DNA of 63,764 bases from Archangium sp. (GCA_030681645.1 JAUXRX010000045.1:1-63764), one strand, 5' to 3'. Counted from the stretch's first letter, positions 33,085 to 63,526 are shown. Made by a program: numbers and translations. Notes: generated by a model from the sequence alone, not told the origin.

Positions 33085-35933
<2,849 letters not shown>

Positions 35934-35934
<1 letters not shown>

Positions 35935-45179: not shown

Positions 45180-45183
<4 letters not shown>
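44455..45183 (+). CDS. MglA-like small Ras-family GTPase
   Basis: [21 protein letters not shown] aligns with MglA [34 protein letters not shown] and IQYNKRDLPD are conserved. An alternative GTG start lies at ~44476. Confidence 0.85.
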
Positions 45184-46655
<1,472 letters not shown>

Positions 46656-46715: not shown

Positions 46716-48164
46716 ATGAACATCCTCTTCCTGTCCTCAGAAGTCGCACCGTTCGCAAAGACGGGAGGCCTCGGAGACGTCTCCGCCGCGCTGCCCAGGG
46801 CCCTCCATCGCAAGGGCCACGACGTGCGGGTGTTCATGCCGATGTACTCGCGCATCGAGCAGAACAAGTACCGCTTCCGCTCGATCGACTCGCTGCGCGG
46901 CCTGAAGGTGATGTTCGGCACGCGGTCCTTCGAGGTGAGCATCTTCGCGGCGACGCTGCCGGGTTCGACGATGGAGGTCTTCTTCGTCAACTGCCCGCAG
47001 CTCTACGGCCGGCACGCCATCTACGCGCACGACGGAGACGAGCACCTGCGCTTCCTGGTGCTCTGCTACGCGGCCCTCGAGGCGGCGCAGCGCATGCGGT
47101 TCGCGCCCGACGTGGTGCACTGCAACGACTGGCAGACGGCGATGGTGCCGCTGCTGCTCAAGACGCGCTTCGCGTGGGACGGCGCCATCTTCGGCAAGAC
47201 GAAGACGGTCCTCACCATCCACAACCTGAACTACCAGGGCACGTTCCCCTCGAACGTGCTGCCGGACACGGGGCTGCTGCGCTCTGCGCACCTCCTCCAC
47301 CAGGATCAGCTCCACGGCGGCAGGATCAACTTCCTGCTCCACGGCATCCTCTACGCGACCGCGGTCACCACGGTGAGCCCGACCTACGCGAGGGAGATCC
47401 GCACGCCGGAATACGGCGCGGGCCTCGAGCCGTTCCTCAAAGCCCGGGAGTCGACGGTCTTCGGCCTGCTCAACGGCGTCGACTACGACGAGTGGAGCCC
47501 CCAGGCGGATCGCCTCATCCCCCAGCGCTACGACGTCGACGATCTCTCCGGCAAGGAGCGCTGCAAGGCGGCGCTGCTGTCCCGCGCGCACCTGCCCGTG
47601 CTGCCCGGCGTGCCGCTGCTGGGCATCGTCTCGCGGCTCACCAGCCAGAAGGGGTTCGATCTCCTGCCCGACGCGCTCTCGCTGGGGCTGCGCGAGGGCA
47701 AGTTCCAGCTGGTGGTGCAGGGCAGCGGAGAGAAGCGGTTCGAGCGCATGTTCCACCAGCTGCGCGACAAGTACCCGCGGCAGGTGCGGTTCCAGACGGC
47801 GTTCGACAACCCGCTGGCGCACTGGATCCAGGCCGGGTCCGACTTCTTCCTCATGCCGTCGAAGTACGAGCCGTGCGGGCTGACGCAGCTCTACGCGCTC
47901 AAGTACGGCACGGTGCCGATCGTGCGGAAGACGGGCGGGCTCGCCGACACGGTGCAGCTCTGGTCACCGCGTACGGGCGGCGGCACGGGCATCGTGTTCG
48001 ACGACTACGACGCGAAGGCGGTGCACTGGGCGCTCGAGGCCGCGTTCAACATCTACCGCGACCGCCCCGCCTACCGCCGCCTGCAGCACAACGGCATGAC
48101 GCAGAACTTCTCCTGGGATCACCAGGTGCAGAAGTACGAACAGCTCTACTCCAAACTCGTCTGA
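46716..48164 (+). CDS. glgA: glycogen (starch) synthase, ADP-glucose type
   Basis: MNILFLSSEVAPFAKTGGLGDV gives a KTGGL motif, and the GT-B fold is conserved. Confidence 0.9.
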   Translation: MNILFLSSEVAPFAKTGGLGDVSAALPRALHRKGHDVRVFMPMYSRIEQNKYRFRSIDSLRGLKVMFGTRSFEVSIFAATLPGSTMEVFFVNCPQLYGRHAIYAHDGDEHLRFLVLCYAALEAAQRMRFAPDVVHCNDWQTAMVPLLLKTRFAWDGAIFGKTKTVLTIHNLNYQGTFPSNVLPDTGLLRSAHLLHQDQLHGGRINFLLHGILYATAVTTVSPTYAREIRTPEYGAGLEPFLKARESTVFGLLNGVDYDEWSPQADRLIPQRYDVDDLSGKERCKAALLSRAHLPVLPGVPLLGIVSRLTSQKGFDLLPDALSLGLREGKFQLVVQGSGEKRFERMFHQLRDKYPRQVRFQTAFDNPLAHWIQAGSDFFLMPSKYEPCGLTQLYALKYGTVPIVRKTGGLADTVQLWSPRTGGGTGIVFDDYDAKAVHWALEAAFNIYRDRPAYRRLQHNGMTQNFSWDHQVQKYEQLYSKLV

Positions 48165-48173
48165 GGTCCTGAC

Positions 48174-49397
48174 ATGCACGTCGTCTTCATCGAGCCACGC
48201 TTCCCGGTCAACCAGCGCTACTTCGTCAAGGCGCTCAAGGAAGTGGGCGCCACCGTCACCGCCATCGGAGAAGGGTCGAAGGACTCGCTCAGCGGCGACA
48301 TGCGCCAGTGGCTGACGCACTACGAGCAGGTCGACTCGGTGGTGAATGAAGGCGCCGTGCTGCGCGCGGCGAAGTTCATTCACAACAAGAAGCGCATCGA
48401 TCGCATCGAGGCGACGGTCGAGGCGCACATCATGTCGACCGCGAAGGTGCGCGAGGCGATGGGCATCGAGGGCACCTCGGTGAAGACGTCGTGGCTGTGC
48501 CGCGACAAGCCGTCGATGAAGGAAGCGCTGCGCAACGCGGGCGTGCCGTGCGCGCAGTCGACCGCGGCGTCTTCTCTCGAGGAGCTGGTGGCGTTCGCCA
48601 AGCAGGTCGGCTTCCCGTTGATCATCAAGCCGCGCGACGGCGCGGGCGCGTCAGGCACGAGCCGCTGTGACTCGTTGGCAGACCTGGCGAAGGCGGCGTC
48701 GGAGCTGGGCGTCGATCGGGGGCGCTCGGTCGCCGTCGAGGAGTTCATCGAGGGCCACGAAGGCTTCTACGACACCATCAGCATCGGCGGCCGGGTGGTG
48801 CACGAGTTCGTCACGCACTATTACCCGAACGTGCTCGAGGCGATGCGCCACCGGTGGATCAGCCCCCAGTTCGTCAGCACCAACCGCGTGGACTCCGCGC
48901 CCGGCTACCAGGAGCTCAAGGTGCTCGGCGGCAAGGTGCTGCGCGCGCTCGACATCGGCACCTCGGCCACGCACATGGAGTGGTTCAGCGGGCCGAAGGG
49001 CCTCAAGTTCTCGGAGATCGGCTGCCGCCCGCCCGGCGTGCGCGCGTGGGACCTGTACAACGTGGGCAACGACGTGGACCTCTATCGCGAGTGGGCGATG
49101 GCCATCGTGCACGGCCGGCCGGGTGCGCGCCTCTCGCGCCGCTTCGCCGCGGGCATCGTGGCGCTGCGTCCCAGCCAGGACGGCCGCATCGTCGGCTACG
49201 AGGGCGTGGGCAAGGTCGAGCGCGCGTTCGGCCAGTGGATGATCGACGCGCACCTTCCGCCCGAGGGGACGCCGACGCAGCCGGTGTCAGCAGGCTACAT
49301 GGCCAACGCGTGGATGCGCTTCAAGCACCCCGACTACGACCAACTGCGCGAGATGCTCAACGCGGTCGGCGAGACGGTGAAGGTCTACGCGAGGTGA
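48174..49397 (+). CDS. ATP-grasp domain protein (paralog A)
   Basis: ATP-grasp core motifs are present, and it is a 407-aa paralog of the gene at 62306..63526. Confidence 0.7.
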   Translation: MHVVFIEPRFPVNQRYFVKALKEVGATVTAIGEGSKDSLSGDMRQWLTHYEQVDSVVNEGAVLRAAKFIHNKKRIDRIEATVEAHIMSTAKVREAMGIEGTSVKTSWLCRDKPSMKEALRNAGVPCAQSTAASSLEELVAFAKQVGFPLIIKPRDGAGASGTSRCDSLADLAKAASELGVDRGRSVAVEEFIEGHEGFYDTISIGGRVVHEFVTHYYPNVLEAMRHRWISPQFVSTNRVDSAPGYQELKVLGGKVLRALDIGTSATHMEWFSGPKGLKFSEIGCRPPGVRAWDLYNVGNDVDLYREWAMAIVHGRPGARLSRRFAAGIVALRPSQDGRIVGYEGVGKVERAFGQWMIDAHLPPEGTPTQPVSAGYMANAWMRFKHPDYDQLREMLNAVGETVKVYAR

Positions 49398-49559: not shown

Positions 49560-51026
49560 CTACCTGCGCTCGCCAAAGACGTCATCCGGAGACGTCACAG
49601 TGCCCGAGTCGCTGGGCGGGGACGCCGGAGCGCGGGCGGGCTTGGGCCGGGGCGCTGTCGTCGGCGCGCGGGCAGGTCCACGAGCCGTCGGCCCGGGAGC
49701 GACCTGAGGGACCACCCCATCGCCTGGGGGGAGCGGCCCGGTCTCGGGTGCATCGACCGTCGCGGGTGCGTCGGCGGTGGGGAGAGGCTGCGCTCGGGGC
49801 GGGGGCGTCACCTCGGTCGCCTCGGTGCCGACCGGGTCGGCTGTCGGCTCCACCGTCGGCCCGCGGAAGACCAGCGCGATCACCGCCGCCAGGGCGAGCA
49901 GGAGGCTTGCCGCCAGCGCCGCCCGCGGGAGCGCGGGGCGGCGAACCACGGGAAGTGGCTCCTGGTCCAGTTCGAGAGCTGCGGCGATCTCGTCCAGCGC
50001 GCGGCTCACCTCGCCGGCAGCGGTGGGGCGGTGCTGGGGGTCCTTGCTCAGGCAGCGATCCACCAGCGCGCAGAGCGCCGCGGGCGCATCGGGCACCAGC
50101 TTGGCCAGCGGCGCGGGGGTGCGGCTCTGGACCGCGTACATCACCTCCACCACGGTGACGCCATTGAAGGGCAGCTCACCGGAGAGCAACTGGTAGAGCA
50201 CCACCCCCACCGCCCAGAGATCGGTCCTGGCGTCGATGGGACTGCCGTGGTCGATCTGCTCCGGGGCCATGTAGGGCGGCGAGCCGATCATCATCTGCGC
50301 GCTGCTGGTGCCCAGGCCCTTCTCGATGTCGGGGTGGGTGGACTTTGCGATGCCGAAATCCAACACCTTGATCACCTCGGAGCCGTCGGGCCGCCGCGCC
50401 AGGAACAGGTTCGCCGGCTTCAGATCGCGGTGCACGATGCCCATCCCGTGGGCTTCGCCGATCGCCTCCAACGCCTGGCGCACCCACGCCACGACCTGTC
50501 GAACGGAGATGGTTCGCTCCCGGCTCAACCGCTGCTCGAGCGTCTCTCCCTCGAGGTACTCCATCACCAGGAACGGCGCGCCGCTGGGGAGCGAGTCCAG
50601 GTCGAGCACCCGCCCTGCGTGGGGAGACTGCAGGCGCACTGCCGCGCGGGCTTCCCGTTGGAAGCGGGCCACGGCCTGGGGGTCCGCCACCAACGCGGGC
50701 AGCATGAACTTCAGGGCCACGCGCTGGTTGAGTTGCAGGTGCCAGGCCAGCACGACGGTGCCCATGCCTCCGGCGCCCAGCGTCCGCTCGATGCGGTACT
50801 TCCCGCCGACCGTCTCGCCGTCACCCACCGGGGAAGGGACTGCCGCGGTCTCCCTCTCTGTGATGGGCTCGGCGCTGGCGTGCGTGTGGGAGAGCGCCGC
50901 GAAGAGGCGACGGCATGGCTCACAGTCGCGAACGTGAACTCGCAGCGCCTCGGCCTCCTCCGGCTGACAGGCACCCCGGGCGTAGGCCTCGACGGTGTCC
51001 TGGTTGAGGTGTCCGGCGCGCGACAT
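49560..51026 (-). CDS. Ser/Thr protein kinase with N-terminal zf-HC2-like zinc finger and C-terminal TM + Pro-rich tail
   Basis: The zinc-finger-like region is HVRDCEPCRRLF. Kinase motifs GAGGMGTV, HRDLKPAN and DFGIA are present. Confidence 0.85.
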   Translation of the reverse strand: MSRAGHLNQDTVEAYARGACQPEEAEALRVHVRDCEPCRRLFAALSHTHASAEPITERETAAVPSPVGDGETVGGKYRIERTLGAGGMGTVVLAWHLQLNQRVALKFMLPALVADPQAVARFQREARAAVRLQSPHAGRVLDLDSLPSGAPFLVMEYLEGETLEQRLSRERTISVRQVVAWVRQALEAIGEAHGMGIVHRDLKPANLFLARRPDGSEVIKVLDFGIAKSTHPDIEKGLGTSSAQMMIGSPPYMAPEQIDHGSPIDARTDLWAVGVVLYQLLSGELPFNGVTVVEVMYAVQSRTPAPLAKLVPDAPAALCALVDRCLSKDPQHRPTAAGEVSRALDEIAAALELDQEPLPVVRRPALPRAALAASLLLALAAVIALVFRGPTVEPTADPVGTEATEVTPPPRAQPLPTADAPATVDAPETGPLPPGDGVVPQVAPGPTARGPARAPTTAPRPKPARAPASPPSDSGTVTSPDDVFGERR

Positions 51027-51086
51027 CGTCAGTGCGCATAGCAGACGCGATGCAGCGCAGGCAAAGCTCCGCGTCGACCAGCCGGC

Positions 51087-53354
51087 TCAGGGACCGCGGT
51101 GGAGGATGGTGCCGCCGCTGCCCACAGCCCAGACATCGCCGGGCCCGCTCCCCCAGATGGCGGTGAGGCCGCGTCCGGTGATGCTCGTCGACGCCGCCCA
51201 GAGGCTGCCTTCCCAGTGGAAGCGGCCCTGGCTTCCGCCGCCGACGGCCCAGACGTCGTTCGCGCCGCTCCCCCAGATGCCTCGCAACGAGAACGTCGTC
51301 GAGGTGGCGGGTGACCACGCCCCGCCGTCCGAGTGGAAGATGAAGTCGGAATCGGACACTGCCCAGAGATCCGACGCGCTGCTCCCCCAGACCCCATAGA
51401 GCACGTACTGCGTGAGGTTGACGGTGTGGGTGGCCCAGGCCGTCCCATTCCAGTGAAGGACGATGCCGCCGCCGCCCACGGCCCACACGTCGGTCGGCCC
51501 GCTGCCCCAGACCGAGTAGAGGCTCGCCGTCGTCCCGCTGATGAAGGGGGTCCAGGCCGAGCCGTTCCAGTGGAGGATGACGCCGGCACCGCCGACGGCC
51601 CACACGTCAGCGGGCCCGCTGCCCCAGACCGAGAAGAGGCCCGCCGTCGTCTCACTGGCGACCCAGGCCGAGCCGTTCCAGTGGAGAGCGGTCTGCATGC
51701 CCACCACCCACACGTCGTTGGGGCCACTGCCCCAGACGCCCGTGAGGTCCTTGGTCGTCCCGCTCGCAGAGTTGGTCCAGGCGCTTCCGGCCCAATGGAG
51801 GATGGTCCCGGAATTGCCGACGACCCAGACGTCGTCGGGGCCGCTCCCCCAGACGCCATTGAGGTTGAGGGTCGTCCCGGTGCTGGCCCGGGACCAGTTG
51901 ATGCCGCTCAACCGCAGCAGGGTCCCCGTGTCTCCCACAGCCCAGGCGTCACCGGCGCCGCTTCCGGAGAGGCCATTGAGCCGGGCCCCCGTTCCGCTGG
52001 TGACGAGGCCCCAGCCCCCCCCGTCGCCGCGGAGCAGGGTTCCGTTGACTCCCACAATCCAGAGGTCAGTCGGAGAGGTGCCCCACACCCCGTTGAGTTG
52101 AGCCGTCGTCGGCGTCGCCGGGATGACGGTCGCCCAACTCGACCCTGTCCAGTGGAGGATGGTGCCGGTCTGCCCGATGGCCCAGACGTCATTCGCGGCG
52201 CTGCCCCAGATGCCGAGGAGGTCGCGCACCGTCCCGCTGGCGACGGTGGCCCAGGTCGTCCCATTCCAGCGGAGGATGGTCCCGCCGTCTCCGACGGCCC
52301 AGGCATCACTCGCGCTCCTGCCCCAGATCGCGTTCAGCCAGGCCGTGCCCACGGTGGACGTCGCCCACGAGGTCCCGTTCCAGTGGAGGAGCGTTCCGCT
52401 GTCCCCGACGGCCCAGACATCGCTCGCGCTGCTGCCCCAGACCCCGGCCAGGAGCTCCGACCCGCTCCGCACGACGCTCCAGGCGCTCCCGTTCCAATGG
52501 ACGATGGTGCCGAAGGAGCCCACGGCCCAGGCGTCGTCGGCCGCCCTCCCCCAGATGCTCGTCAGTCCCACCGTCGTACCGCTTTCGACGCGGGTCCAGG
52601 TGACGCCGTCCCAATGGAGGATCAATCCGCCGTCGCCGACGGCCCAGACGTTCCCCGGGGCGGCGCTCCACGTGCTCCGGAGGTGGTTTCCCTGGGGAAG
52701 GGGGTTGCTCCAGCACCAGCGATCGCCGATACACACCGGGCCTGCGTCGGCGCCGACGGTGATGGTGACGGTGGACGGGCTGAGCGAGGTCACGCTCGCG
52801 GCGTTGGTCACCGTCAGAGAGAAGGTGAGGAGCCCCGAGGCCGGCGCGGTGAAGGTGGCGCTGGCCGTGGCGGCACCGGTCAGCGTCACCGCAGTCCCTC
52901 CCAGTTGGCTCCACGCGTACGCGAGCGGGGTGAGGGCGGGCGTGTTGGGGTCAAGGGAGGCCCGCCCGTCCAACGTCACTGTCGCGCCGGCGGCGACCGT
53001 CTGCGCGGGACCGGCGTTGGCCACCGGCGGCAGCATCACGCAACTGCCCACGCGGCAGGTGGGCGCCGCGGTGCCGCAGGCGCCACAGGCGAGCCCTCCG
53101 CCGCCACATTGGGAGGGGCTCTCTGCCGCCAACTCGACGCAGGTGGCGCCGTTGCAGCACCCGGTGCAGTTCCCGGCGTTGCATGGCTCGCCGCTGTCCG
53201 TGCCGGCGTCCGCGCAGTCGGGGCAGGCGAAGACCTTGCCCTCGCTCGAAAGGTCGAGGCAGCCCATCAGCAGGCTGCACCCCAGCACTGCCCCCCACCA
53301 CGCGTGTCGCGTCATTACTTCCATTCTCCGTCCGTGGAGTCCCTCAAAACTCAC
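51087..53354 (-). CDS. secreted beta-propeller repeat protein (≥14 W-x-V-G repeats) with Cys-rich N-terminus
   Basis: About 40-aa units of the form VWAVGDxGTILHWNGTxWATxTSGT are repeated more than 14 times. An N-terminal signal, a Cys-rich region and an Ig-like region precede them. Confidence 0.75.
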   Translation of the reverse strand: MSFEGLHGRRMEVMTRHAWWGAVLGCSLLMGCLDLSSEGKVFACPDCADAGTDSGEPCNAGNCTGCCNGATCVELAAESPSQCGGGGLACGACGTAAPTCRVGSCVMLPPVANAGPAQTVAAGATVTLDGRASLDPNTPALTPLAYAWSQLGGTAVTLTGAATASATFTAPASGLLTFSLTVTNAASVTSLSPSTVTITVGADAGPVCIGDRWCWSNPLPQGNHLRSTWSAAPGNVWAVGDGGLILHWDGVTWTRVESGTTVGLTSIWGRAADDAWAVGSFGTIVHWNGSAWSVVRSGSELLAGVWGSSASDVWAVGDSGTLLHWNGTSWATSTVGTAWLNAIWGRSASDAWAVGDGGTILRWNGTTWATVASGTVRDLLGIWGSAANDVWAIGQTGTILHWTGSSWATVIPATPTTAQLNGVWGTSPTDLWIVGVNGTLLRGDGGGWGLVTSGTGARLNGLSGSGAGDAWAVGDTGTLLRLSGINWSRASTGTTLNLNGVWGSGPDDVWVVGNSGTILHWAGSAWTNSASGTTKDLTGVWGSGPNDVWVVGMQTALHWNGSAWVASETTAGLFSVWGSGPADVWAVGGAGVILHWNGSAWTPFISGTTASLYSVWGSGPTDVWAVGGGGIVLHWNGTAWATHTVNLTQYVLYGVWGSSASDLWAVSDSDFIFHSDGGAWSPATSTTFSLRGIWGSGANDVWAVGGGSQGRFHWEGSLWAASTSITGRGLTAIWGSGPGDVWAVGSGGTILHRGP

Positions 53355-54303
53355 CGCCCAGCACCACGAGCGGACCGGTCGTGGTGGGGATTACCGCGAG
53401 CGTGCCGCGGGCGCCGCGCGCGTACCAGACGAGCCCGGCAACCGTGGCCGCGGCCCCCAACCCCACCGCGACCCACGACGCGGGGTACTGCCACTGAAGT
53501 TGCTCGAACTGGCTCCGGGTGACCGTGGGGGCGGAGGCGCAGGGGTTGCCCGGCTGTTGGCAGACCGTGCGGTCGTAGGTGGTGAGGGTTAGCGCCAGCC
53601 CCACGCCGCCTGCCACCAGCGCAGCGCCGCCGATCGAGATGAGGGCGATCGCCCCGCCTGGCGCTGCCGGGCCGGGGGCCGGCGCCGTCACCTCGATGGT
53701 CGGTGGCGGCGCGGGCCGGGGCGCGGCGATCTGCGCCAGGGGCGGTACGACGACTGGGAGGACTGAGGTGGACGCCACCGTCACGCGGGTGGACCAGCTG
53801 ACGAAGCCCGGCGCCTCAGCGAGGATCTCGACCTCACCGGCATCGACGGGGACGGACTCCGGCGTCTGCCCGAGGTTCACCCGGAACCCCTGGATGACGA
53901 CGGTCAAGCTGTTGACGGGCGCGGCGGAAGACAGGGCCACCCACGAGAGCTTTGCCTTGAGCGCGGCGGCGCGCTGTCGGGCGACCTCTTCACGTTTGCC
54001 CTCGCGGGTGCGCTGGGCCCACGCGGCCGCCTCGTTGAAGCGCAGGTAGGCCTGTACCAGCTGCCCCGTCTTCTCGCGGCAGTCGGCGAGGTTGAGGAGC
54101 GTTCCGAGCGCCGGGTCGAGCGCGTGGCTCTCTTCGAAGAGGGGGCACGCCTCGGTTGCGCGCCCGGAGCTGAGCAGGTCCCGGGCCTCCCGGAACAGAC
54201 GCTCGGCGTTCCGAGAGGGGGCAGGCCCAGGCCCGGCCGCGGCGAGAACCAACGAGAGGAGCAGCAGCGGCACAGCGGTACCTCCGATGGGCACTTCAGA
54301 CAC
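53344..54303 (-). CDS. TPR-repeat / PEGA-like domain membrane protein
   Basis: It has an N-terminal signal, a TPR-like region and a C-terminal TM. It overlaps the start of the propeller gene by 11 nt. Confidence 0.55.
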   Translation of the reverse strand: MSEVPIGGTAVPLLLLSLVLAAAGPGPAPSRNAERLFREARDLLSSGRATEACPLFEESHALDPALGTLLNLADCREKTGQLVQAYLRFNEAAAWAQRTREGKREEVARQRAAALKAKLSWVALSSAAPVNSLTVVIQGFRVNLGQTPESVPVDAGEVEILAEAPGFVSWSTRVTVASTSVLPVVVPPLAQIAAPRPAPPPTIEVTAPAPGPAAPGGAIALISIGGAALVAGGVGLALTLTTYDRTVCQQPGNPCASAPTVTRSQFEQLQWQYPASWVAVGLGAAATVAGLVWYARGARGTLAVIPTTTGPLVVLGGEF

Positions 54304-54544: not shown

Positions 54545-55471
54545 GTGAAGGGTGTACTGCTGGGCCCCCAACAGCTGAAGGTCAGTCTCGGCGATGCGGT
54601 GAGCGCGCTCGGTCGCGAGGGGCCCATCGCCCTGGTGACCTGCGGCTGGCAGGAGCGCGAAGACAACGACGAAGACCTGCCAGGTCAGCTCGGGCGCAAG
54701 ACCATCAACCTGAAGCTCTACGAGCGCGGTGAGCAGGTGCTCGCCGCCGACAAGTCCTTCGCGCGCGCCCACCGCGCCCGGCAGGACCAGCTGCGGCAGA
54801 TCCAGGAGTTCTACCGGCTGCGCCTCGAGCGCACCTTCGACGCCGCGCTCGACATCGCGCGAAAGTCGGCCGGCACCGACCTCGAAGCCGACGAGCTGCG
54901 CCTCTCGATGGAGCAGATCCGCCGCATCGACCAGGAACACCTCGAGCGCGTCAGCTCCCTGCGCGAAGCGTACGAGCTGCAGCTGCGCCCGATGGAGCGC
55001 CCGGTGATCGCCAAACACCGCGCCGAGCTCAAGAAGATCCTCGACTCGGTCGGCATCCTCGCGATCGCCGGCGGCCACGTGGCGGTGTTGATGAACCGGC
55101 TGCGCATGTTCGGCCTCAAGGACCTGCTCGACGACCAGGCGCTCGTCGCGTGGAGCGGCGGCGCGATGGTCACCGGTGAGCGCGTGGTGCTCTTTCACGA
55201 GAGCCCGCCAGAAGGCTTCGGCATCAGCGAGGTGCTCGAGCAGGGCATCGGGCTGCACGCCGGCGTGCTGCCGCTGCCCAACCCCAGGCTTCGCCTCAAG
55301 CTCGACGAGCCGCTCCGCGTGGGCTGGCTCAGCAAGCGCTACGCGCCGAGCAAGTGCGTCGCGATGGATCAAGGAGACTTCGTGCTGTTCGAAGACAACA
55401 GGTGGTTCGGCGAAGAGGGCACGGTGTTGCTGAAGGAAGACGGCACCGTCGGCACCGGGTGGACGCATTGA
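54545..55471 (+). CDS. peptidase S51 (cyanophycinase / dipeptidase E)-like protein
   Basis: The region ILAIAGGHVAVLMNRLRMFGLKDLL...VAWSGGAMV is S51-like. Confidence 0.6.
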   Translation: MKGVLLGPQQLKVSLGDAVSALGREGPIALVTCGWQEREDNDEDLPGQLGRKTINLKLYERGEQVLAADKSFARAHRARQDQLRQIQEFYRLRLERTFDAALDIARKSAGTDLEADELRLSMEQIRRIDQEHLERVSSLREAYELQLRPMERPVIAKHRAELKKILDSVGILAIAGGHVAVLMNRLRMFGLKDLLDDQALVAWSGGAMVTGERVVLFHESPPEGFGISEVLEQGIGLHAGVLPLPNPRLRLKLDEPLRVGWLSKRYAPSKCVAMDQGDFVLFEDNRWFGEEGTVLLKEDGTVGTGWTH

Positions 55472-55473
55472 GC

Positions 55474-56613
55474 GTGTCCGACCTCGCCATCGACAAGCTG
55501 AAGAAGGGCCCGCACGACGGCCCGGCGCTCGACGCGTTCATGCACAGCCATTCCTTTCCGCTCGTGGAAGGCGGCAAGGTGACCTTCGTCTTCCGCGGCG
55601 CGGTGGAGGCGGTGCACCTGAAGAGCTGGGTGTACGGCCTGCCCAACAGCCAGCCGCTCCATCACCTCGCGAACACCGATCTCTGGCACCTCACCCTCGA
55701 CATCCCTCCGAAGTCGCGCGTCGAATACAAGTTCGAGATCGTCCGCAACGGCAACGGGCAGTGGATCGAGGATCCGCTCAACCCGTACCGCGCCACCGAC
55801 CCGTTCGGCGCGAACTCGGTGGTGCACGGCGAGGGCTACACCGTGCCGGAATGGACGCAGGTCGACCCCGACGCGCGCCCCGGCACGCTCGAGCCGTGGG
55901 TGGTGAAGAGCAAGGCCTTCAACGACACGCGCGGTTTCCTCGTCTATCTCCCCGCGCGCTTCCGCAAGACGCGGCGCTACCCGCTGCTCTTCGTCCACGA
56001 CGGGCCGGACTACGTGCGCTTCGCCAACTTGAAGACGGTGCTCGACAACCTCATCCACCGGCTCGAGATCCCCGACATGGTGGTGGCGCTGACCGGCAGC
56101 CCCAACCGCATCGGGGAGTACGCCGACGACGAGCGGCACGCGCGCTACGTGACCGAAGAGGCCATTCCCGATCTCGAGGCGCGGCTGCCCCTGCTCGGGA
56201 CTCCACGGGGCCGCTGCCTCATGGGCGCGAGCTTCGGGGGCGTGGCGTCACTGTCGACGGCGGTGCGCTACCCGGGGTTCTACGGGCGGCTCTTGCTGCA
56301 GTCGGGCTCGTTCGCGTTCAGCGACATCGGGCACCAGAACAAGCGCGGGCCGGCCTTCGAGCCGGTGGTGCGCTTCATGAACCGCTTCCGCGAGAACCCG
56401 GTGCTGGTGGCCGACAAGGCCTTCATCAGCTGCGGCATGCACGAGTCGTTGATCTACGAGAACCGCTCCCTCATCCCGATGCTCCAGACCACCGAGCTGG
56501 AGCTCAAGTACGTCGAAGCCCGCGACGGTCACAATTGGGAAAACTGGCGAGATCGCCTGCGCGAGGGACTCTCGTGGTTGTTTCCGGGCCCGCTGCGCAT
56601 GGTCTACGAGTAA
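55474..56613 (+). CDS. esterase (enterochelin-esterase-like N-domain + alpha/beta esterase)
   Basis: The C-terminal esterase region shows a GASFGG nucleophile elbow, and a TTG alternative start lies at 55468. Confidence 0.7.
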   Translation: MSDLAIDKLKKGPHDGPALDAFMHSHSFPLVEGGKVTFVFRGAVEAVHLKSWVYGLPNSQPLHHLANTDLWHLTLDIPPKSRVEYKFEIVRNGNGQWIEDPLNPYRATDPFGANSVVHGEGYTVPEWTQVDPDARPGTLEPWVVKSKAFNDTRGFLVYLPARFRKTRRYPLLFVHDGPDYVRFANLKTVLDNLIHRLEIPDMVVALTGSPNRIGEYADDERHARYVTEEAIPDLEARLPLLGTPRGRCLMGASFGGVASLSTAVRYPGFYGRLLLQSGSFAFSDIGHQNKRGPAFEPVVRFMNRFRENPVLVADKAFISCGMHESLIYENRSLIPMLQTTELELKYVEARDGHNWENWRDRLREGLSWLFPGPLRMVYE

Positions 56614-56634
56614 ACTTTCGCGAAGGGAAAAACA

Positions 56635-57876
56635 GTGGCGAACGTCACCAGAAGCATCGGCCTGTCGCTCGGCGCAGACATCTGCTGGCCCATCTGCTTC
56701 GAGCAGATCATGAAGCGCCTGGCGCTTCGGGTTCAGCACCAGGGCGACACCATCGACTTCGCGGTCGAGCGGGTCACCATCGAGCCCTTCGCGCTCACCC
56801 AGCCCATCAAGTACGACGTGGTGATCGACCGGCTCACGCACTGGTACGACACCACGCGCGAGTGGATCAAGAAGGGCGTGTTGATGGACGGGCTCTACGT
56901 CTTCAACAACCCCTGGTCCGTGCAGTCGATGGAGAAGCACACCAGCTACGCCGCGATGACCGCGCTGGGCATGCCCATTCCCGAGACGTGGATGGTGCCT
57001 CCCAAGGCGTACGAGGCGCTGCCTGACCTGAAGCCGACGCTCAAGCAGTACGCCCGGCTCTTCGACCTCGCGGCGATCGGCAAGAAGATCGGCTACCCGC
57101 TCTTCATGAAGCCGTACGACGGCGGCGGGTGGAAGGGCGTCACCCGCATCGCCGACGAGGCCGCGCTCAAGAAGGCGTACGACGACTCCGGCACGCTGGT
57201 GATGCACCTGCAGAAGGCGGTCGAGCCGTACGACCGCTTCGTGCGCACCATCGGCTTCGGGCCGCAGACGCACTCGGTGCTCTACGACCCCGCCGCGCCG
57301 CTGCACGATCGCTACACCCTGAAGAAGGAATCGGAGTTCCTCGACGCCAGGGACCGCAAGGTCCTCGAGGACACGACGCTCACCATCAACGCGTTCTTCG
57401 GGTGGGACTTCAACTCGTGCGAGTCGCTGCGCAAGGACGGCACCTGGTACCCGATCGACTTCGCCAACCCGTGCCCCGACTCGCAGGTCACCTCGCTGCA
57501 CTACCACTTCCCCTGGATGGTGAAGGCGTACCTCAAGTGGGCGATCTTCACCGCGGCCACCAAGCGGCCGATGCGCAAGGCCTTCGACTGGGAGCCGTTC
57601 TACGCGATCGCGAAGGAGCCGCTGCCGTACGACCAGAAGCTGGCGAAGTACGGCGCGCTGTCCCGGAAGATCCTCGAGGCGGACCAGTTCGAGGAGTTCT
57701 GCGCGAAGAACTTGAAGCACCTCGACGAGGTGGCGTGGGAGTTCTTCTCCACCGACGTGGCGAAGGACGCCATTCGCCAGAAGGTGACCGCGCTCTTCCC
57801 CGCGCACGAGGTGGAGAAGTTCACCGAGCTGTTCTTCAAGCGCATTCAGCAGTGGAGGGCTGATCAGAAGGCATGA
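56635..57876 (+). CDS. ATP-grasp-like amidoligase (family unresolved; glutathionylspermidine-synthase/circularly-permuted ATP-grasp-like)
   Basis: The region YPLFMKPYDGGGWKGV...LVMHLQ is ATP-grasp-like. Confidence 0.55.
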   Translation: MANVTRSIGLSLGADICWPICFEQIMKRLALRVQHQGDTIDFAVERVTIEPFALTQPIKYDVVIDRLTHWYDTTREWIKKGVLMDGLYVFNNPWSVQSMEKHTSYAAMTALGMPIPETWMVPPKAYEALPDLKPTLKQYARLFDLAAIGKKIGYPLFMKPYDGGGWKGVTRIADEAALKKAYDDSGTLVMHLQKAVEPYDRFVRTIGFGPQTHSVLYDPAAPLHDRYTLKKESEFLDARDRKVLEDTTLTINAFFGWDFNSCESLRKDGTWYPIDFANPCPDSQVTSLHYHFPWMVKAYLKWAIFTAATKRPMRKAFDWEPFYAIAKEPLPYDQKLAKYGALSRKILEADQFEEFCAKNLKHLDEVAWEFFSTDVAKDAIRQKVTALFPAHEVEKFTELFFKRIQQWRADQKA

Positions 57877-58619
57877 GGGCTTCCGAGAACAAGACGACGG
57901 CGAAGTGGTTCAGCCAGCGCCTCCAACGCGAGGTGAGCATGGCGCGGTGGGGCTCGTTCGGGCAGCCCGTGCTCCTGTTTCCCACGGCCGGGGGCGACTG
58001 CGAGGAGATCGAGCGCTTCCTCATGATCAAGGTGCTCGCGCCGCTGATCGACGCGGGGAAGATCAAGGTCTACTCGTGCGACTCCGTGGCGGGGAAGGCG
58101 ATGGTCACGCAGGAAGGCTCGCCGGGGCATCGCCAGTGGGTGCTCAACCAGTTCCACCAGTACATCCGCCATGAGCTGGTGCCCGCGGTGCGCAAGGACT
58201 GCGGGTCGGACAGCATCGAGCTGTGGTCCGCGGGCGCGTCGATCGGCGCCTTCCACGCGGCGGCGGTGCTGTGCCGCTTCCCCGACGTGTTCAGCAAGGC
58301 CATCTGCATGTCGGGCACCTTCGACATTCGCCGCTTCATGAGCGCGGACCAGTTCGGCGACGACTTCTGGGTCAGTTCGCCCCTGCACTTCGTGCCGACG
58401 CTGTCAGGCCCACATCTGGAGAAGTTGCGCACCCGCTACGTGTTGATCCCCTCGGGCGAAGGCAAGGCCGAGGACATCAGCGAGTCGTGGGCGCTGGCCC
58501 GGGTGCTGGGGAAGGCGGGCATTCCCAATCGCGTCGACAGCTGGGGAAAAGAGACACCTCACGATTGGATGACGTGGCGTGACATGCTTCCGCGGTACCT
58601 GTCGCAGTGGGTCGCCTGA
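57873..58619 (+). CDS. esterase-family alpha/beta hydrolase
   Basis: A GASIGAFHAA nucleophile elbow is present. It overlaps the upstream stop (ATGA). Confidence 0.65.
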   Translation: MRASENKTTAKWFSQRLQREVSMARWGSFGQPVLLFPTAGGDCEEIERFLMIKVLAPLIDAGKIKVYSCDSVAGKAMVTQEGSPGHRQWVLNQFHQYIRHELVPAVRKDCGSDSIELWSAGASIGAFHAAAVLCRFPDVFSKAICMSGTFDIRRFMSADQFGDDFWVSSPLHFVPTLSGPHLEKLRTRYVLIPSGEGKAEDISESWALARVLGKAGIPNRVDSWGKETPHDWMTWRDMLPRYLSQWVA

Positions 58620-58629
58620 CGGGAGGCTG

Positions 58630-60552
58630 ATGAGTACGGAAACGACGCGAGCGCACAAAGAGATCGATGTGGAGCGCGATGCGAAGACGGGCCGCGCCTT
58701 CACGCGCGCGGTGTTGGCTGATCTTCGGGCGATGGAGCGGATGCTCGCCGAAGGGCACTTCGAGAAGGGCGTCAGGCGCATCGGCGCCGAGCAGGAGATG
58801 TTCCTCACGGATCAGGCGTATCTGCCCGCGCCCGGCGCGCTGGCGATGCTCGACAAGCTGAAAGATCCACACTTCACCACCGAGCTCGGCGCGTTCCAGC
58901 TCGAGATGAACGCCGCCCCGCAGGACTTCACCGGCACCGGCTTCTCTGCGCTCGAGCGGCAGATGACGTCGCTGATGGAGAAGGCCTGGAAGGCGGCCGG
59001 CGATCTCGGCTTGCACGCGGTGCTGGTGGGCATTCTTCCGACGATGCGCAAGGCAGACCTGGGCATGGAGAACATGGTGCCCAGCCCGCGCTACCTGGCC
59101 CTTTCAAAGGCCGTGGCGGCGCTGCGCGGTGGCGACTTCGAGTTCTCCATCAAGGGCCTCGACGAGCTGATCATCGCGCACGACTCGGTGATGGTCGAAG
59201 CGTGCAACTCGAGCTTCCAGGTGCACCTGCAGGTCGACGCCGACGACTTCGCGCGCCAGTACAACCTGGCGCAGGTGCTGGCCGGGCCGCTGATGTCGAT
59301 CTCGTGCAACTCGCCGCTGCTGTTCGGCAAGCGGCTCTGGTCCGAGACGCGCATCGCGCTGTTCCAGCAGTCGGTGGATACGCGCAGCAAGACCCAGCAC
59401 CTGCGTGACGCAGCCGCGCGCGTGACGTTCGGCACGCGGTTCGTGGAAAGGTCGATCACCGAGATCTTCCGCGAAGACATCGCGCGCTTCCGCACCCTGG
59501 TGGGCACGGACCTCGATGAGGATCCGATGGCGGTGCTCAACTCCGGCCAGGCGCCGCAGCTGAAGGCGCTGCGCCTGCACAACGGCACCATCTACCGCTG
59601 GAACCGGGCCTGCTACGGCATCATCGACGGCAAGCCGCACCTGCGCATCGAGAACCGGGTGATGCCCGCGGGCCCCAGCGTGCCCGATGAAGTGGCGAAC
59701 GCGGCATTCTGGTGCGGGCTGATGATCGAGTTCTCGCAGCGGTACGAGGACATCACCCGCCACATCGACTTCGATCACGCGGCGGGCAACTTCTACACGG
59801 CGGCGCGTGAGGGCTACGTGGCGCCCATGCACTGGCTCGACGGCGAGGAAGTGTCCGCCCCGCGGCTGGTGCTCGATCGGCTGTTGCCGGCGGCAGAGGC
59901 GGGGTTGCGGCGTCAGCAGGTCGACGAGGCGGACATCAAGCGGTACCTGGGCATCGTCGAGGCGCGCGTGCGCAGCGGCCGCACCGGGTCGCGGTGGCTG
60001 ACGTCGTCACTGCACAAGATGAAGGACCATGGCAGCGCCGGCGAGCGTCAGTGCGCGCTGGTGGCGGCCACGATCGAGCGACAGAAAGCGGGGCGACCGG
60101 TGTCTGAGTGGGAACCAGCGCGGCTGGATGAAGCAGGCTCGCCGAAGCACACGTACCAGCGGGTGGAGCAGTTCATGACCACCGACCTGTTCACGGTGGA
60201 GGCCGACGACGCCGTCGATCTCGTGGCCAACATCATGAGCTGGGAGCGGGTGCGCTACATCCTGGTCGAGGACAAGGACCACAAGCTGGTGGGCCTCATC
60301 TCGTACCGCGCGGTGCTGCGCTTCCTCGCGGGGGGCGGCGCCACCAAGGACGCGGCGGTGTCCGAGGTGATGAAGCCCGACGTGATGCACGTGACGCCCC
60401 AGACCTCGACCCTCGAGGCGATCTCGATCATGCGAGACAAGCGGGTGGGGTGCCTGCCGGTGCTGCTCGACGGGAAGCTCGTCGGGGTGTTGACCGAAGA
60501 GAACTTCCTGAAGATCGCCCGGGACCTGCTCGAAGCGCAGCTGAGGCAGTGA
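58630..60552 (+). CDS. glutamate-cysteine-ligase family 2 (GCS2/YbdK-like carboxylate-amine ligase) fused to tandem CBS domains
   Basis: The GCS2-like core contains RIGAEQEMFL and the C-terminal part holds two CBS domains. A gggagg RBS precedes the ATG. Confidence 0.8.
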   Translation: MSTETTRAHKEIDVERDAKTGRAFTRAVLADLRAMERMLAEGHFEKGVRRIGAEQEMFLTDQAYLPAPGALAMLDKLKDPHFTTELGAFQLEMNAAPQDFTGTGFSALERQMTSLMEKAWKAAGDLGLHAVLVGILPTMRKADLGMENMVPSPRYLALSKAVAALRGGDFEFSIKGLDELIIAHDSVMVEACNSSFQVHLQVDADDFARQYNLAQVLAGPLMSISCNSPLLFGKRLWSETRIALFQQSVDTRSKTQHLRDAAARVTFGTRFVERSITEIFREDIARFRTLVGTDLDEDPMAVLNSGQAPQLKALRLHNGTIYRWNRACYGIIDGKPHLRIENRVMPAGPSVPDEVANAAFWCGLMIEFSQRYEDITRHIDFDHAAGNFYTAAREGYVAPMHWLDGEEVSAPRLVLDRLLPAAEAGLRRQQVDEADIKRYLGIVEARVRSGRTGSRWLTSSLHKMKDHGSAGERQCALVAATIERQKAGRPVSEWEPARLDEAGSPKHTYQRVEQFMTTDLFTVEADDAVDLVANIMSWERVRYILVEDKDHKLVGLISYRAVLRFLAGGGATKDAAVSEVMKPDVMHVTPQTSTLEAISIMRDKRVGCLPVLLDGKLVGVLTEENFLKIARDLLEAQLRQ

Positions 60553-60597: not shown

Positions 60598-61158
60598 GTG
60601 ACCGAGCCTTCCGCGTACGAGGTCAGCGCGACGTACGCGCGAGGCTTCGCGAAGGCTGCGAAGGACCTCGGCCTGCTCCCCGCGCTGAAGCCCCGCTGTT
60701 CTCCCCAGGCGCTCGAGTTCCTGATGGATCCCGACGCGAACCGCTGGTGGCCGTCCGCGGCGGTCGAGGCCTGCACCGAGCTCATCCACGAGATGAGCGG
60801 CGAGGCCACGCTCTTCGAGGTCGGTTACCGGACGGTGGCCGTCACGGTGGGGCCCGTGCTGCTGCCGCTGGTGAAGGTGTCGCTCACCCTGTTCGGGGCC
60901 ACGCCGGCGACCCTGCTCAAGCGCGTCGCCGACCTGTCGAGCTCCTCGCTGCGCGGGATGATCTCGACCTGGAAGCCCGGCGGTCCACGCGATGGAGAGG
61001 TCACGCTCACGTACCCGACCCAGGTGCCCAGGGGCTACGGCGAGCTGTGGCGAGGGGCGCTCCGCTGGGTGTGTGAGGCGGCCGACGCGAAGGACCCCAG
61101 GGCAGAGCTGCTCAGCCACACGGGCAAGGTGCTCACCTTCAAGGTGACCTGGCGCTGA
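60598..61158 (+). CDS. Myxococcales-restricted TIGR02265/DUF2378-like protein
   Basis: It is about 186 aa. The call rests on overall resemblance to that family and is low-specificity. Confidence 0.5.
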   Translation: MTEPSAYEVSATYARGFAKAAKDLGLLPALKPRCSPQALEFLMDPDANRWWPSAAVEACTELIHEMSGEATLFEVGYRTVAVTVGPVLLPLVKVSLTLFGATPATLLKRVADLSSSSLRGMISTWKPGGPRDGEVTLTYPTQVPRGYGELWRGALRWVCEAADAKDPRAELLSHTGKVLTFKVTWR

Positions 61159-61197
61159 GTTGCCGTGGTGACGTGGTTGTCATACGTTATGTATGAC

Positions 61198-61455
61198 ATG
61201 AGTACCCGAATCAACGCCCGCATCGACGACGAGCTGAGCCGTCAGCTGGAAGAGCTGCGCCGACGCTCGGGCCAGACCCTCACTGAGGTCATCGAGGCCG
61301 CGATCCGCGCGTGGACGCAGGAGCAGCTCGGAAAGCGTCCCTCCGCCGCGGAGGTGTTCGCGTCCACCGGCTTCATCGGGTCGGGCGACGGACCGCGAGA
61401 CCTGGCCCGCAATGCGAAGAAGTACCTCTCTGAGTCGCTCAAGAGGAAGGCGTGA
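61198..61455 (+). CDS. ribbon-helix-helix antitoxin (VapB-like)
   Basis: It starts MSTRINARIDDELSRQLEEL, which is RHH-like, and it overlaps the start of the downstream PIN gene. Confidence 0.6.
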   Translation: MSTRINARIDDELSRQLEELRRRSGQTLTEVIEAAIRAWTQEQLGKRPSAAEVFASTGFIGSGDGPRDLARNAKKYLSESLKRKA

Positions 61456-61874
61456 TCATCGCGGACACAGGGTTCTTCGTTGCGCTGGCCAATCGAGGCG
61501 ACAAGGACAACGAGGCCGCGGTGAAGGCCCTCGGGAAGCTGCGGGAGGGGCTGGTGACGACCTGGCCGGTCGTGACCGAGACGACGCACCTGCTTGCTAC
61601 GCGGTCGGGCACGCATGCGCTGCTGGCCTGGGTGGCGAGCGCTCGCGCGGGCGCCTTCAAGATCTTCGAGCTGAACGCAGGGCACTGGCTTCGGCTCGAG
61701 GGGTTCATGAAGCACTACGCCGATTTGCCAATGGACCTTGCCGATGCGTCGCTCGTGTTGCTTGCCGAGGAGCAGAACGACGGGCGGATCTTGTCGACCG
61801 ATCGCCGCGATTTCCGGACGTATCGCTGGAAGAAGCGGAAGCCTTTCAAGAACCTGCTCGATCTCGAAGACTGA
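61452..61874 (+). CDS. vapC: PIN-domain ribonuclease toxin VapC
   Basis: The N-terminus reads IIADTGFFVAL, conserved acidic residues are present (TETT...D.AD), and it is about 140 aa. The GTG overlaps the upstream TGA. Confidence 0.8.
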   Translation: MIIADTGFFVALANRGDKDNEAAVKALGKLREGLVTTWPVVTETTHLLATRSGTHALLAWVASARAGAFKIFELNAGHWLRLEGFMKHYADLPMDLADASLVLLAEEQNDGRILSTDRRDFRTYRWKKRKPFKNLLDLED

Positions 61875-62305: not shown

Positions 62306-63526
62306 TCAGCCTCCCGCGTAGAGCGTGACGTCCGTCGCGGCGGCGAAGGCGATCTTGTAGGCCGTGTCCCAGTTGGGGTGGCGGATCATGAGGTGGCCGT
62401 CGGAGAGCAGCGTCTGCTTCCAGTTGCGCCGCATCGTGCCCGGGCGCAGCAGCTGCTCCTCGACCACGTAGTCTCCGTACTTGTGCAGGTACTCACGCAG
62501 CCCGGTGATGCGCGTGATGCGCCCCTGGCCCAGCGCGCGCTTGAAGATGATGCCCGCGTTGTACTTGCGCTTGGTCGACCCCTCGAACGACTTCCAGCAC
62601 GCCACCCGCGCCCACTCGCGGAAGAGGTCGACGTCGCCCGTGTAGTTCATCTGGTCCACCAGGTGCGCGCCGCCGGGCCGGCAGCCGATCTCACCGAACA
62701 CCGCCTCGCCCTTCTTCGTCATGAACCATTCCATGTGGGTGAAGCCGTCGCCCATGTTGAGCGCCTTGAGCACCTTCCGCCCCAGCGCGATGCCCGGCTT
62801 GATCTTCGGCTGGTCGAGCTCGCGCACCGTGATGATCACCGGGCTCACCCACTCGTTGCTCCGCGCGATCAACGGCGGCGGCAGGTAGGCCGCCACGTTC
62901 TCGTACAGCGGCTTTCCCCCCACCGAGATGGTGTCGTAGGTGAACTCTTCGCCGTCGATGAACTCCTCGCAGCTGCAGACCTCGACGTGCCTCATCATCG
63001 GGATCGCCGACTCGAGCTCGGCCTTCGAGGACACCTTGTAGGTGTCGGCGCTGCCGGCGCCCGAGATGGGCTTCAAGATGAGCGGGTAGCCGATCTTCTC
63101 CGCCGCTTCGCGGATCTCCCGCTCGCTCTTCACCTTGAAGGCGTGCGGCACGCGCAGCCCCGCCGCCTTCACCCGGTCCTTCATCAACATCTTGTCGCGG
63201 AAGCCCGTGACCGTGTCGACCGACATGCCCGGCAGGCCGAAGCGCTCGCGCAGCTTCGCCGCGAGGATCACCAGCGGCTCCCAGTTCGCCAGGATGCGAT
63301 CGATGCGGCGGCCGCGCAGCCAGGCCGACACGCGCTTGATCACGTCTTCTTCGTCCATGATGCGCGGCACCTGGAGGTAGTCCGCGAGGTACGGCTTGAG
63401 CGTCGGAGGGAGGCCGCGCCGGGAGGAGTCACCCACCCCGAAGACGTTGGCGCCCACTTCGGCGAGGCCACGCGTGTATTGCTGCATCTCTGGCGGGTAC
63501 GAGGGCGCGAGGAAGACGACGTTCAT
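62306..63526 (-). CDS. ATP-grasp domain protein (paralog B)
   Basis: ATP-grasp core motifs are present, and it is a 406-aa paralog of the gene at 48174..49397. Confidence 0.7.
   Translation of the reverse strand: MNVVFLAPSYPPEMQQYTRGLAEVGANVFGVGDSSRRGLPPTLKPYLADYLQVPRIMDEEDVIKRVSAWLRGRRIDRILANWEPLVILAAKLRERFGLPGMSVDTVTGFRDKMLMKDRVKAAGLRVPHAFKVKSEREIREAAEKIGYPLILKPISGAGSADTYKVSSKAELESAIPMMRHVEVCSCEEFIDGEEFTYDTISVGGKPLYENVAAYLPPPLIARSNEWVSPVIITVRELDQPKIKPGIALGRKVLKALNMGDGFTHMEWFMTKKGEAVFGEIGCRPGGAHLVDQMNYTGDVDLFREWARVACWKSFEGSTKRKYNAGIIFKRALGQGRITRITGLREYLHKYGDYVVEEQLLRPGTMRRNWKQTLLSDGHLMIRHPNWDTAYKIAFAAATDVTLYAGG

Follow-up and report, generated by a model that had tools for sequence, protein, structure and literature searches.

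A conserved cluster of putative carboxylate ligases, an S51-fold protein and serine esterases, linked to glycogen synthase, as a candidate system for acidic peptide or polyamide metabolism in Archangium sp. and other bacteria

Gene neighbourhoods that combine amidoligases with peptidases were reportedly predicted through comparative genomics by Iyer, Abhiman, Burroughs and Aravind in 2009 (Mol Biosyst 5:1636), and as a kind of system they are already known. Here, we describe a cluster of five genes, denoted g1 to g5, that occupies positions 54545-60552 of a 63,764-nucleotide stretch of DNA from Archangium sp. (GCA_030681645.1 JAUXRX010000045.1:1-63764), part of a metagenome-assembled genome (MAG) with about 70% GC in the source contig; the whole stretch is referred to below as the window. 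In common with the earlier predictions, a single operon holds ATP-grasp and glutamine synthetase (GS)-fold (GCS2/COG2170) ligases together with peptidases or amidohydrolases of unrelated folds; following the reasoning of that work, such an operon would be expected to produce or recycle peptide metabolites or tags. The features proper to the present cluster, all of them apparently undescribed as far as can be told, are an ATP-grasp family outside Pfam (g3), a fusion of a GCS2 ligase with CBS domains (g5), two PF00756 esterases as integral members (g2 and g4), a partly eroded S51 partner (g1) and linkage to a glycogen synthase gene (glgA), which is accompanied in the window by two additional ATP-grasp genes, AG1 and AG2. 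No literature on this cluster was found, and a related architecture is possibly catalogued in the 2009 work.

Compared with the cyanophycin system (CphA plus CphB), the locus has neither a multi-domain CphA nor a Mur-ligase M domain; g3 has only the generic ATP-grasp core in common with CphA, and g1 differs from CphB by an additional 100-residue helical insert and, in the window, by the lack of the canonical His. Glutathione synthesis, with its GCS2 ligase and ATP-grasp enzyme, follows a two-step logic. The GS-fold and ATP-grasp ligases found here, like those of glutathione biosynthesis (GshA/GCS plus GshB), suggest sequential peptide-bond formation; in contrast to GshA, YbdK and EgtA, g5 is only generically GCS2-like and is fused to CBS domains, and g3 is not specifically GshB-like.

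We put at about even (probability roughly 0.5) the chance that an acidic (Asp/Glu-type) peptide or polyamide is made and degraded by this system, in a manner coupled to glycogen storage. Judged from the families, a set of three to five ATP-dependent carboxylate ligases belonging to two folds, combined with Asp/Glu-type hydrolases (S51, AstE/AspA and FGase) and two serine esterases, is the hallmark of a pathway in which peptides or amides are assembled stepwise, without the ribosome, and are turned over by the same system. An earlier examination of the DNA alone (hereafter the sequence-only reading) had proposed an amidoligase or peptide-metabolite cluster, and the co-occurrence of two ligase folds, a CBS pair, an S51 fold and esterases in one operon supports that general interpretation; the glgA linkage goes beyond it and suggests storage metabolism.

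Because long open reading frames (ORFs) are plentiful on both strands, frames were chosen by codon-position GC. Exactly five genes with a coding pattern, with GC at third codon positions (GC3) of 0.88-0.96 and low GC at second positions, were delineated in 54545-60552, all on the + strand. These are g1 (54545-55471, 308 aa), encoding an S51-fold, cyanophycinase/dipeptidase E-like protein; g2 (55474-56613, 379 aa), a Fes-like serine esterase with a GTG start 2 nt past the g1 stop; g3 (56635-57876, 413 aa), a divergent ATP-grasp protein with a GTG start preceded by GAAGGGA; g4 (57873-58619, 248 aa), a short PF00756 serine esterase, the start of which overlaps the g3 stop (ATGA); and g5 (58630-60552, 640 aa), the GCS2 ligase fused to a CBS pair, with an ATG start. 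For g5, the 640-aa product was preferred to the 657-aa longest ORF because GGGAGG precedes the later ATG. Read directly, the junctions measure +2 (g1/g2), +21 (g2/g3), -4 (g3/g4) and +10 nt (g4/g5), and ribosome-binding sites accompany them, so that the five co-directional, tightly spaced genes and the single ATGA overlap of the sequence-only reading both stand. No terminator-like or promoter-like sites above shuffle expectation were detected inside the block. The spacing and start signals indicate that g1-g5 are a translationally coupled operon, co-transcription being the best explanation. A chance assembly of functionally unrelated genes, or of false ORFs produced by high GC content, is suggested by the many spurious long ORFs on both strands of the roughly 70% GC window, but this explanation is already refuted by synteny and homology and deserves virtually no credence: the GC3 pattern selects exactly the g1-g5 frames, each of the five proteins has hundreds or thousands of homologues, and gene order persists across phyla along with the tight coupling of starts and stops.

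Synteny was counted in 80 loci from different species, the denominators being the loci with sufficient flank, and g3 was traced by a pattern scan in which each species was represented by one genome. Confirmed g3 loci are present in at least 593 species genomes and belong to many families of Myxococcota, to Eisenbacteria, Steroidobacteraceae, Binatia and Bradymonadia, and to one contig labelled Acidimicrobiales. Adjacency to g3 is seen for g2 in 60/73 loci and for g4 in 54/75, and g1 and g5 are present in 55/67 and 34/62, respectively. This synteny is far beyond chance; conservation of the neighbourhood, which had been named beforehand as a test by which the cluster could be refuted, thus turned out to extend across several phyla. 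Three variants exist: many genomes, such as those of Sandaracinaceae, hold only g1-g2-g3 at this locus; certain Archangium-like MAGs have g3-g4-g5 and lack g1-g2; and in Steroidobacteraceae AG2(-)-glgA-AG1 comes after g1-g4, g5 being absent nearby. The lineage-specific neighbours of the minimal g1-g2-g3 module (DUF4331, DnaJ, DsbA-like, cyclase and sigma-54 activator genes) are mutually unrelated and give no clue to its role.

At loci L081, L088/L089 and L092, the gene immediately before a divergent g3 homologue (about 25-45% identity) encodes an S51 protein. These partners, of 464-505 aa, are homologous to g1, including part of its helical insert. Given that the pair recurs in distant lineages with different neighbours, S51 plus g3 is the ancestral module and the evolutionary core of the system. 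The contexts of other divergent g3 homologues (L082, L083, L087, L091, L093 and L094) were uninformative. Divergently upstream of the S51 plus g3-like pair, a DUF3806 gene occurs at L081 3654-5211, L088 4768-6375 and L092 6092-6451, accompanied by a HEAT_2 repeat protein in L081 and L088, and is possibly an additional conserved partner in those lineages. Genes for NfeD/YqiJ-like and Band_7/flotillin proteins adjoin both the cluster of the Steroidobacteraceae locus L070 (9074-11071) and the divergent S51 plus g3 pair of L081 (981-3633 and 9432-11027), a proximity that could be coincidence or could reflect a membrane-microdomain link. Steroidobacteraceae encode, shortly upstream of g1 and on the opposite strand, a beta-propeller peptidase of the S9 prolyl-oligopeptidase type (L054 1956-4178; L063 2-1666; L066 2698-4830), with one or two small ORFs intervening in L063 and L066.

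Several other system types were looked for. None of g1-g5, g6, AG1 and AG2 matched the PADLOC defence models, and a defence-system reading was dropped on that account. A ribosomally made, post-translationally modified peptide (RiPP)/graspetide reading was dropped as well, given that the junctions are too tight to hold a precursor-peptide gene and that no conserved family of small ORFs emerged from the 80 loci. The tRNA search returned no tRNAs, and no riboswitch or other RNA element was detected upstream, the sole match being CRISPR-DR at chance level (E 0.89). N-termini of the cluster products, judged by reading alone with no predictor run, show no obvious signal peptide, and all the products appear to be cytoplasmic.

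The fusion in g5 joins an N-terminal GCS2-type (glutamine-synthetase-fold) ligase domain (58630..60153, +) to C-terminal tandem CBS domains, that is, a Bateman module (60154..60552, +), in agreement with the sequence-only reading. Against Pfam GCS2 (PF04107), g5 scores 35 bits (cut-off 21), with only profile positions 2-111 of 291 aligned, and 16 of 17 g5 orthologues match the same family, at a best E of 3.5e-13. Invariant positions in the orthologue alignment are E54-x-E56, E85, E92, N94, H199 and R339-x-E341-x-R343, which we take to resemble the metal-binding and catalytic set of the GS fold. No NCBIfam match to GshA, EgtA or YbdK was obtained at E <= 0.01, and the GCS2 domain profile retrieved nothing from the PDB at E <= 1, the full-length g5 profile finding CBS proteins only. 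With the GCS2 threshold passed and neither an equivalog nor a solved relative in hand, g5 is best described as a predicted divergent GCS2-type ligase. Its CBS pair (PF00571) scores 80.7 bits over two stretches and strongly matches solved CBS-pair proteins.

These searches bear on a route to a glutathione-like gamma-glutamyl peptide or low-molecular-weight thiol, whereby the GCS2 enzyme would form a dipeptide, the ATP-grasp enzyme would extend it in a GshB-like manner and the PF00756 proteins would serve as thioesterases. GCS2 and ATP-grasp ligases are both present and conserved, the PF00756 family includes S-formylglutathione hydrolases, and the FGase-like and AstE-like enzymes encoded at some of the loci would fit the breakdown of N-acyl or gamma-glutamyl compounds. 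However, g5 matches none of the three NCBIfam models and no solved relative by sequence, many genomes retain g1-g3 without g5 at the locus, and both the S51 protein and glgA are left unexplained, so that we regard such a route as improbable.

The product of g3 is identical to that of NCBI locus tag Q8L48_32200, annotated as 'hypothetical protein'. Comparison of predicted folds identifies an ATP-grasp fold followed by a C-terminal helical domain; the ATP-grasp-like character assigned to g3 on first inspection is thereby upheld, but the CP_ATPgrasp or GSP_synth match envisaged with it did not materialize. No ATP-grasp family of Pfam, CP_ATPgrasp and GSP_synth included, matches the protein, RimK is not matched in either Pfam or NCBIfam, and assignment to any of these three families was dropped. 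The best NCBIfam scores are about 20 bits, against cut-offs of 143-965, with weak alignments spanning residues 130-190. Of 10 divergent full-length g3 homologues scanned, 9 fall in no Pfam family, and the remaining one gives a single match below threshold, to Dala_Dala_lig_C. By these profile comparisons, g3 constitutes a separate ATP-grasp family outside Pfam. K159 and G163-G165 ('KPYDGGGW') and D275 and N278 ('IDFAN') are invariant in the orthologue alignment and are candidates for the ATP-binding Lys, the Gly-rich loop and the metal-binding acidic/Asn motif of ATP-grasp enzymes. Identity among g3 proteins is 66-72% across phyla, with 164 of 413 positions invariant among 20 diverse sequences, making g3 the most conserved gene of the cluster; across loci, identity falls to about 40% for g1 and to 50-65% for g2, g4 and g5, and this difference indicates that the conservation of g3 reflects strong constraint rather than recent transfer. 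The family is large, with more than 6830 homologue clusters at 90% identity; an exhaustive HMMER search with g3 recovered 1516 representative clusters at E <= 1e-3, 301 of them at E <= 1e-30.

The conservation of g3 is unusually high for a small-molecule enzyme and is as expected of a protein that recognizes a conserved macromolecule, which raises the alternative of reversible protein tagging in the manner of RimK or TTL, with g3 attaching amino acids such as Glu or Asp to a conserved protein and g1, g2 and g4 trimming or removing the tag. The structural neighbours of g3 include RimK, the carrier-protein-dependent LysX/ArgX and TTL-type enzymes, and the C-terminal helical domain of g3 and the coiled-coil insert of g1 would suit protein-protein contacts. 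Against tagging, no gene for a target or carrier such as LysW is conserved in the neighbourhood across the 80 loci, and the GCS2 and L-amino-acid ligases argue for free small-molecule intermediates. Identity of g3 to the RimK, LysX and graspetide ATP-grasp enzymes is 9-17%, and g3 is equally close to synapsin and the inositol-phosphate kinases. On balance, tagging seems rather unlikely. Some metagenomic proteins (P0350, P0271, P0258, P0387, P0265 and P0281) join g2-g3 or g3-g4 in one chain; they could be true fusions, a Rosetta-stone hint of a complex, or frameshift or gene-calling artefacts, and were not used as evidence for the latter reason.

A fold search shows that g1 has the alpha/beta fold of CphB and PepE, into which a helical hairpin (coiled-coil) of roughly 100 residues is inserted at about residues 58-166. 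The sequence-only reading had called g1 S51 peptidase-like, and it was right as to the fold; in contrast, the Pfam threshold is not reached (PF03575, 18.6 bits, below the 23.9 gathering threshold) and the canonical catalytic His is missing. PF03575 is passed by some g1 orthologues, according to precomputed annotations, and by the divergent partner of L092 (47 bits), and the g1 sequence profile yields only marginal PepE matches in the PDB (E 0.4), after removal of the helical insert. The family assignments, the other point named beforehand as a possible refutation, also held overall: searches with profile hidden Markov models confirmed the proposed families of g2, g4 and g5, whereas g1 and g3 were assigned by predicted fold. 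Ser204 of g1 ('AWSGGAM') aligns with the Ser at residue 120 of PepE ('GWSAGAN'), presumably the PepE nucleophile, the catalytic His of which we take to be His157. Among 67 g1 orthologues, the nucleophile position holds Ser in 51, Cys in 7, Ala in 5 and Thr in 4; the Ala variants are those of L019, L020, L025, L026 and L071, with Ser retained in close relatives from the same clade. Such replacements suggest either relaxed constraint or a changed role. The canonical His position is occupied by Asn246 in the window ('LPLPNPR') and by His in 21/67 orthologues ('LPLPHARRRL') and in the divergent partners ('FPHAD'); other near-invariant residues are H218 ('LFH[DE]', 63/67) and R250 (64/67). With Ser204 present and Asn246 at the His site, g1 would be an S51 protein by fold that is rewired or non-catalytic in this lineage, and a conventional peptidase role for the window protein appears doubtful.

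An Arg-rich segment that includes R250 lies past the canonical His position of g1, and we take it to resemble the substrate pocket of CphB. This segment favours a special case of the acidic polyamide reading, namely, a split route, independent of CphA, to a cyanophycin-like branched polyamide, in which one ligase would make the backbone and another the side chains, and S51 and alpha/beta hydrolases would depolymerize the product. The pairing of an S51 protein with an ATP-grasp enzyme parallels cphB/cphA, and linkage to glgA fits a paired carbon and nitrogen reserve. Depolymerization by alpha/beta hydrolases has a counterpart in Sphingomonas KT-1, whose poly(aspartate) hydrolase-1 belongs to the alpha/beta hydrolases and is related to polyhydroxybutyrate (PHB) depolymerases. 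Nevertheless, a CphA-type Mur-ligase domain is missing, the S51 triad is eroded in many orthologues, including the g1 of the window, and no polymer is known from these mostly uncultured lineages; the cyanophycin-like variant is therefore possible and, in our estimate, unlikely.

The presence of two esterases, as originally proposed, is borne out by Pfam Esterase (PF00756) scores of 72 bits for g2 and 34.2 bits for g4 and by conserved Ser and His residues, in the motifs GASFG and DGHNW of g2 (68 sequences) and GASIG and HDW of g4 (58 sequences). The g2 protein consists of an N-terminal E-set domain (Enterochelin_N/CBM48-like) and an alpha/beta hydrolase domain. Enterochelin_N matches the N-domain in 23/23 orthologues, with weak matches to CBM_20 in 19/23 and to CBM_48 in 10/23. 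Among solved structures, g2 is closest to Fes (2b20), feruloyl esterases and CE1 esterases that carry isoamylase-N domains, and it thus shares with the Fes/CE1-type enzymes the combination of Enterochelin_N with PF00756 and the conserved Ser and His. Unlike Fes itself, g2 scores only 89 bits against the Fes equivalog NF007758 of NCBIfam (cut-off 222), and siderophore biosynthesis or transport genes are absent from the context; a siderophore (Fes) reading was dropped for these reasons.

By gene linkage, the predicted functional unit extends past 54545-60552 and takes in GlgA and AG1. The five-gene core of the sequence-only reading holds, but its limits do not: glgA and AG1, at 46716-49397, belong with the cluster, and yet another ATP-grasp gene lies at 62306-63526. 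The additional members were found by clustering all the called genes of the 80 loci and searching again with the added queries. The glgA gene (46716..48164, +, 482 aa) encodes an ADP-glucose-type glycogen synthase that scores 260.8 bits against Pfam Glyco_transf_5 and 546.5 bits against TIGR02095 (cut-off 328.45) and contains the KTGGL motifs of GlgA ('FAKTGGLGDV' and 'RKTGGLADTV'). It is followed by AG1 (48174..49397, +, 407 aa), a canonical ATP-grasp enzyme of the L-amino-acid-ligase type (Pfam ATP-grasp and CPSase_L_D2), the best solved relative of which is the L-amino-acid ligase RizA (4wd3, E 2e-15). In 33/60 loci, the gene immediately upstream of g1 is an AG1 orthologue (61-79% identity), and in 28/59 glgA adjoins the AG1 orthologue, in either orientation, within 7 kb upstream of g3. 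The second enzyme of this type, AG2 (62306..63526, -, 406 aa; Pfam ATP-grasp and ATPgrasp_N), is a paralogue of AG1 with about 34% identity, and in about 20 loci an orthologue of it (about 65-85% identity) is encoded downstream, on the opposite strand, frequently together with a third ATP-grasp gene. An AstE/AspA-like amidohydrolase gene follows g5 in 15/56 loci, and an FGase-like amidohydrolase gene precedes glgA in 10 loci.

The Steroidobacteraceae (L051 and L070) keep the glgA linkage despite rearrangement. At L084-L086, a divergent g3 homologue sits 1.8 kb from glgA in an otherwise unrelated context, a third, independent arrangement that ties the g3 family to glycogen synthase. The 207-aa protein encoded between glgA and the g3-like gene in L084 was considered as an S51 candidate and proved to be a HAMP-domain protein. 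Within the window itself, about 5 kb of mostly minus-strand genes (49560-54303) part glgA-AG1 from g1, and the close relative L003 has a single 258-aa gene in this place. Since glgA-AG1 is contiguous with g1-g5 in most other genomes, the 5-kb block looks like a lineage-specific insertion.

Recurrence of the glgA linkage in three gene arrangements lends some appeal to the idea that glycogen itself is decorated: the ligases would assemble an amino acid or short peptide, g3 would esterify it to hydroxyls of the alpha-glucan made by GlgA, and g2 and g4 would take it off again, the CBM48-like E-set domain of g2 serving to dock on the glucan. Here, g2 and g4 would act as the bona fide serine esterases that their conserved Ser and His imply, not as classical peptidases, and the closest solved structures to g2 include sugar-ester esterases of CE1 that bear isoamylase-N domains; besides the weak CBM_20 and CBM_48 matches, hhalign comparison of the g2 N-domain with the AMPK-beta glycogen-binding module, using an approximate sequence of the latter, gave 54% probability (E 1.3e-4). 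However, the best match of this domain is Enterochelin_N, not a proven carbohydrate-binding module, glgA is not nearby in half of the loci with sufficient flank, and the minimal g1-g2-g3 module occurs without it. We know of no precedent for aminoacylated bacterial glycogen. Decoration of glycogen is accordingly, in our judgement, a long shot, and its most elaborate form, in which reversible aminoacyl or peptidyl decoration gated by the CBS energy sensor would covalently couple nitrogen to carbon storage, is even less probable.

Returning to the reading in which an acidic peptide or polyamide is made and broken down, we infer which substrates are used, in what order the steps run, what the CBS ligand does and how the system is coupled to glycogen as follows. 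Short peptide units would be made by g5, AG1 and AG2 through acyl-phosphate intermediates, and the CBS pair on g5, to go by its family, would gate the first step according to adenine-nucleotide status. The family-specific ligation or elongation would be performed by g3 with its ancestral S51-fold partner g1, and the product or intermediates would be hydrolysed by g2 and g4, joined in other genomes by the AstE/AspA-like and FGase-like amidohydrolases. Coupling to glycogen synthesis would probably make the whole a paired carbon and nitrogen reserve or a stress-metabolite module. The recurrence of S51 with g3 may mirror the hydrolase/synthetase logic of cphB/cphA and, by this analogy, favours the proposal. 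Several considerations weigh against it. Each chemical step is deduced from family membership; g3 is as far from ligases as it is from ATP-grasp kinases such as ITPK1 and PPIP5K; g1 of the window, without the canonical His and with a nucleophile position that varies among orthologues, may be no hydrolase at all; and PF00756 enzymes are typically esterases or thioesterases rather than amidases, a poor fit to a simple polyamide. Furthermore, the many genomes with g1-g2-g3 only and the Steroidobacteraceae without g5 indicate that the full pathway is not universal, and the adjacency of glgA could stem from co-regulation rather than shared chemistry.

The g3 family is large and highly conserved and sits in a cluster of 5-10 genes maintained across Myxococcota, Eisenbacteria, Binatia and Steroidobacteraceae, yet we found no Pfam model, solved structure or literature for it, and identification of the product would give function to several enzyme families at once. 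Such identification might bring to light a novel peptide metabolite, storage polymer or modification of glycogen in soil and freshwater bacteria that are abundant but for the most part uncultured, and the glgA linkage, together with the CBS sensor, yields testable ideas on the coordination of carbon and nitrogen storage.

The block between AG1 and g1 comprises, mostly on the minus strand, genes for a Ser/Thr protein kinase with an N-terminal zf-HC2 domain (49560-51026), a PKD-domain protein (51087-53354) and a TPR/PEGA protein (53344-54303). The coding strand is ambiguous at 51087-53592, where the minus-strand PKD ORF (GC3 0.89) overlaps plus-strand ORFs at 51333-53522 and 52123-53592 (GC3 0.86-0.88); the latter belong to no family, and only the minus-strand ORF has a Pfam match. 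Between g5 and AG2, a 186-aa ORF (60598-61158) belongs to no family and is not conserved in other loci, and a 96-aa ORF (61165-61455) overlaps a PIN-domain gene (61452-61874), the two forming a VapBC-like toxin-antitoxin pair. Directly upstream of glgA, on the same strand, lie genes for an Arf-like GTPase (44455-45183) and a PocR-HisKA-HATPase sensor kinase (45180-46655); a mainly histidine-kinase-like protein family (f9) that includes this kinase recurs in 8 of the 80 loci, and a regulatory link is possible. Farther upstream, the window contains gyrB (33400-35934) and a gene for a RecF-like SMC_N ATPase (37528-38808, -), and the presence of these two genes suggests that the contig may lie near the chromosomal replication origin.

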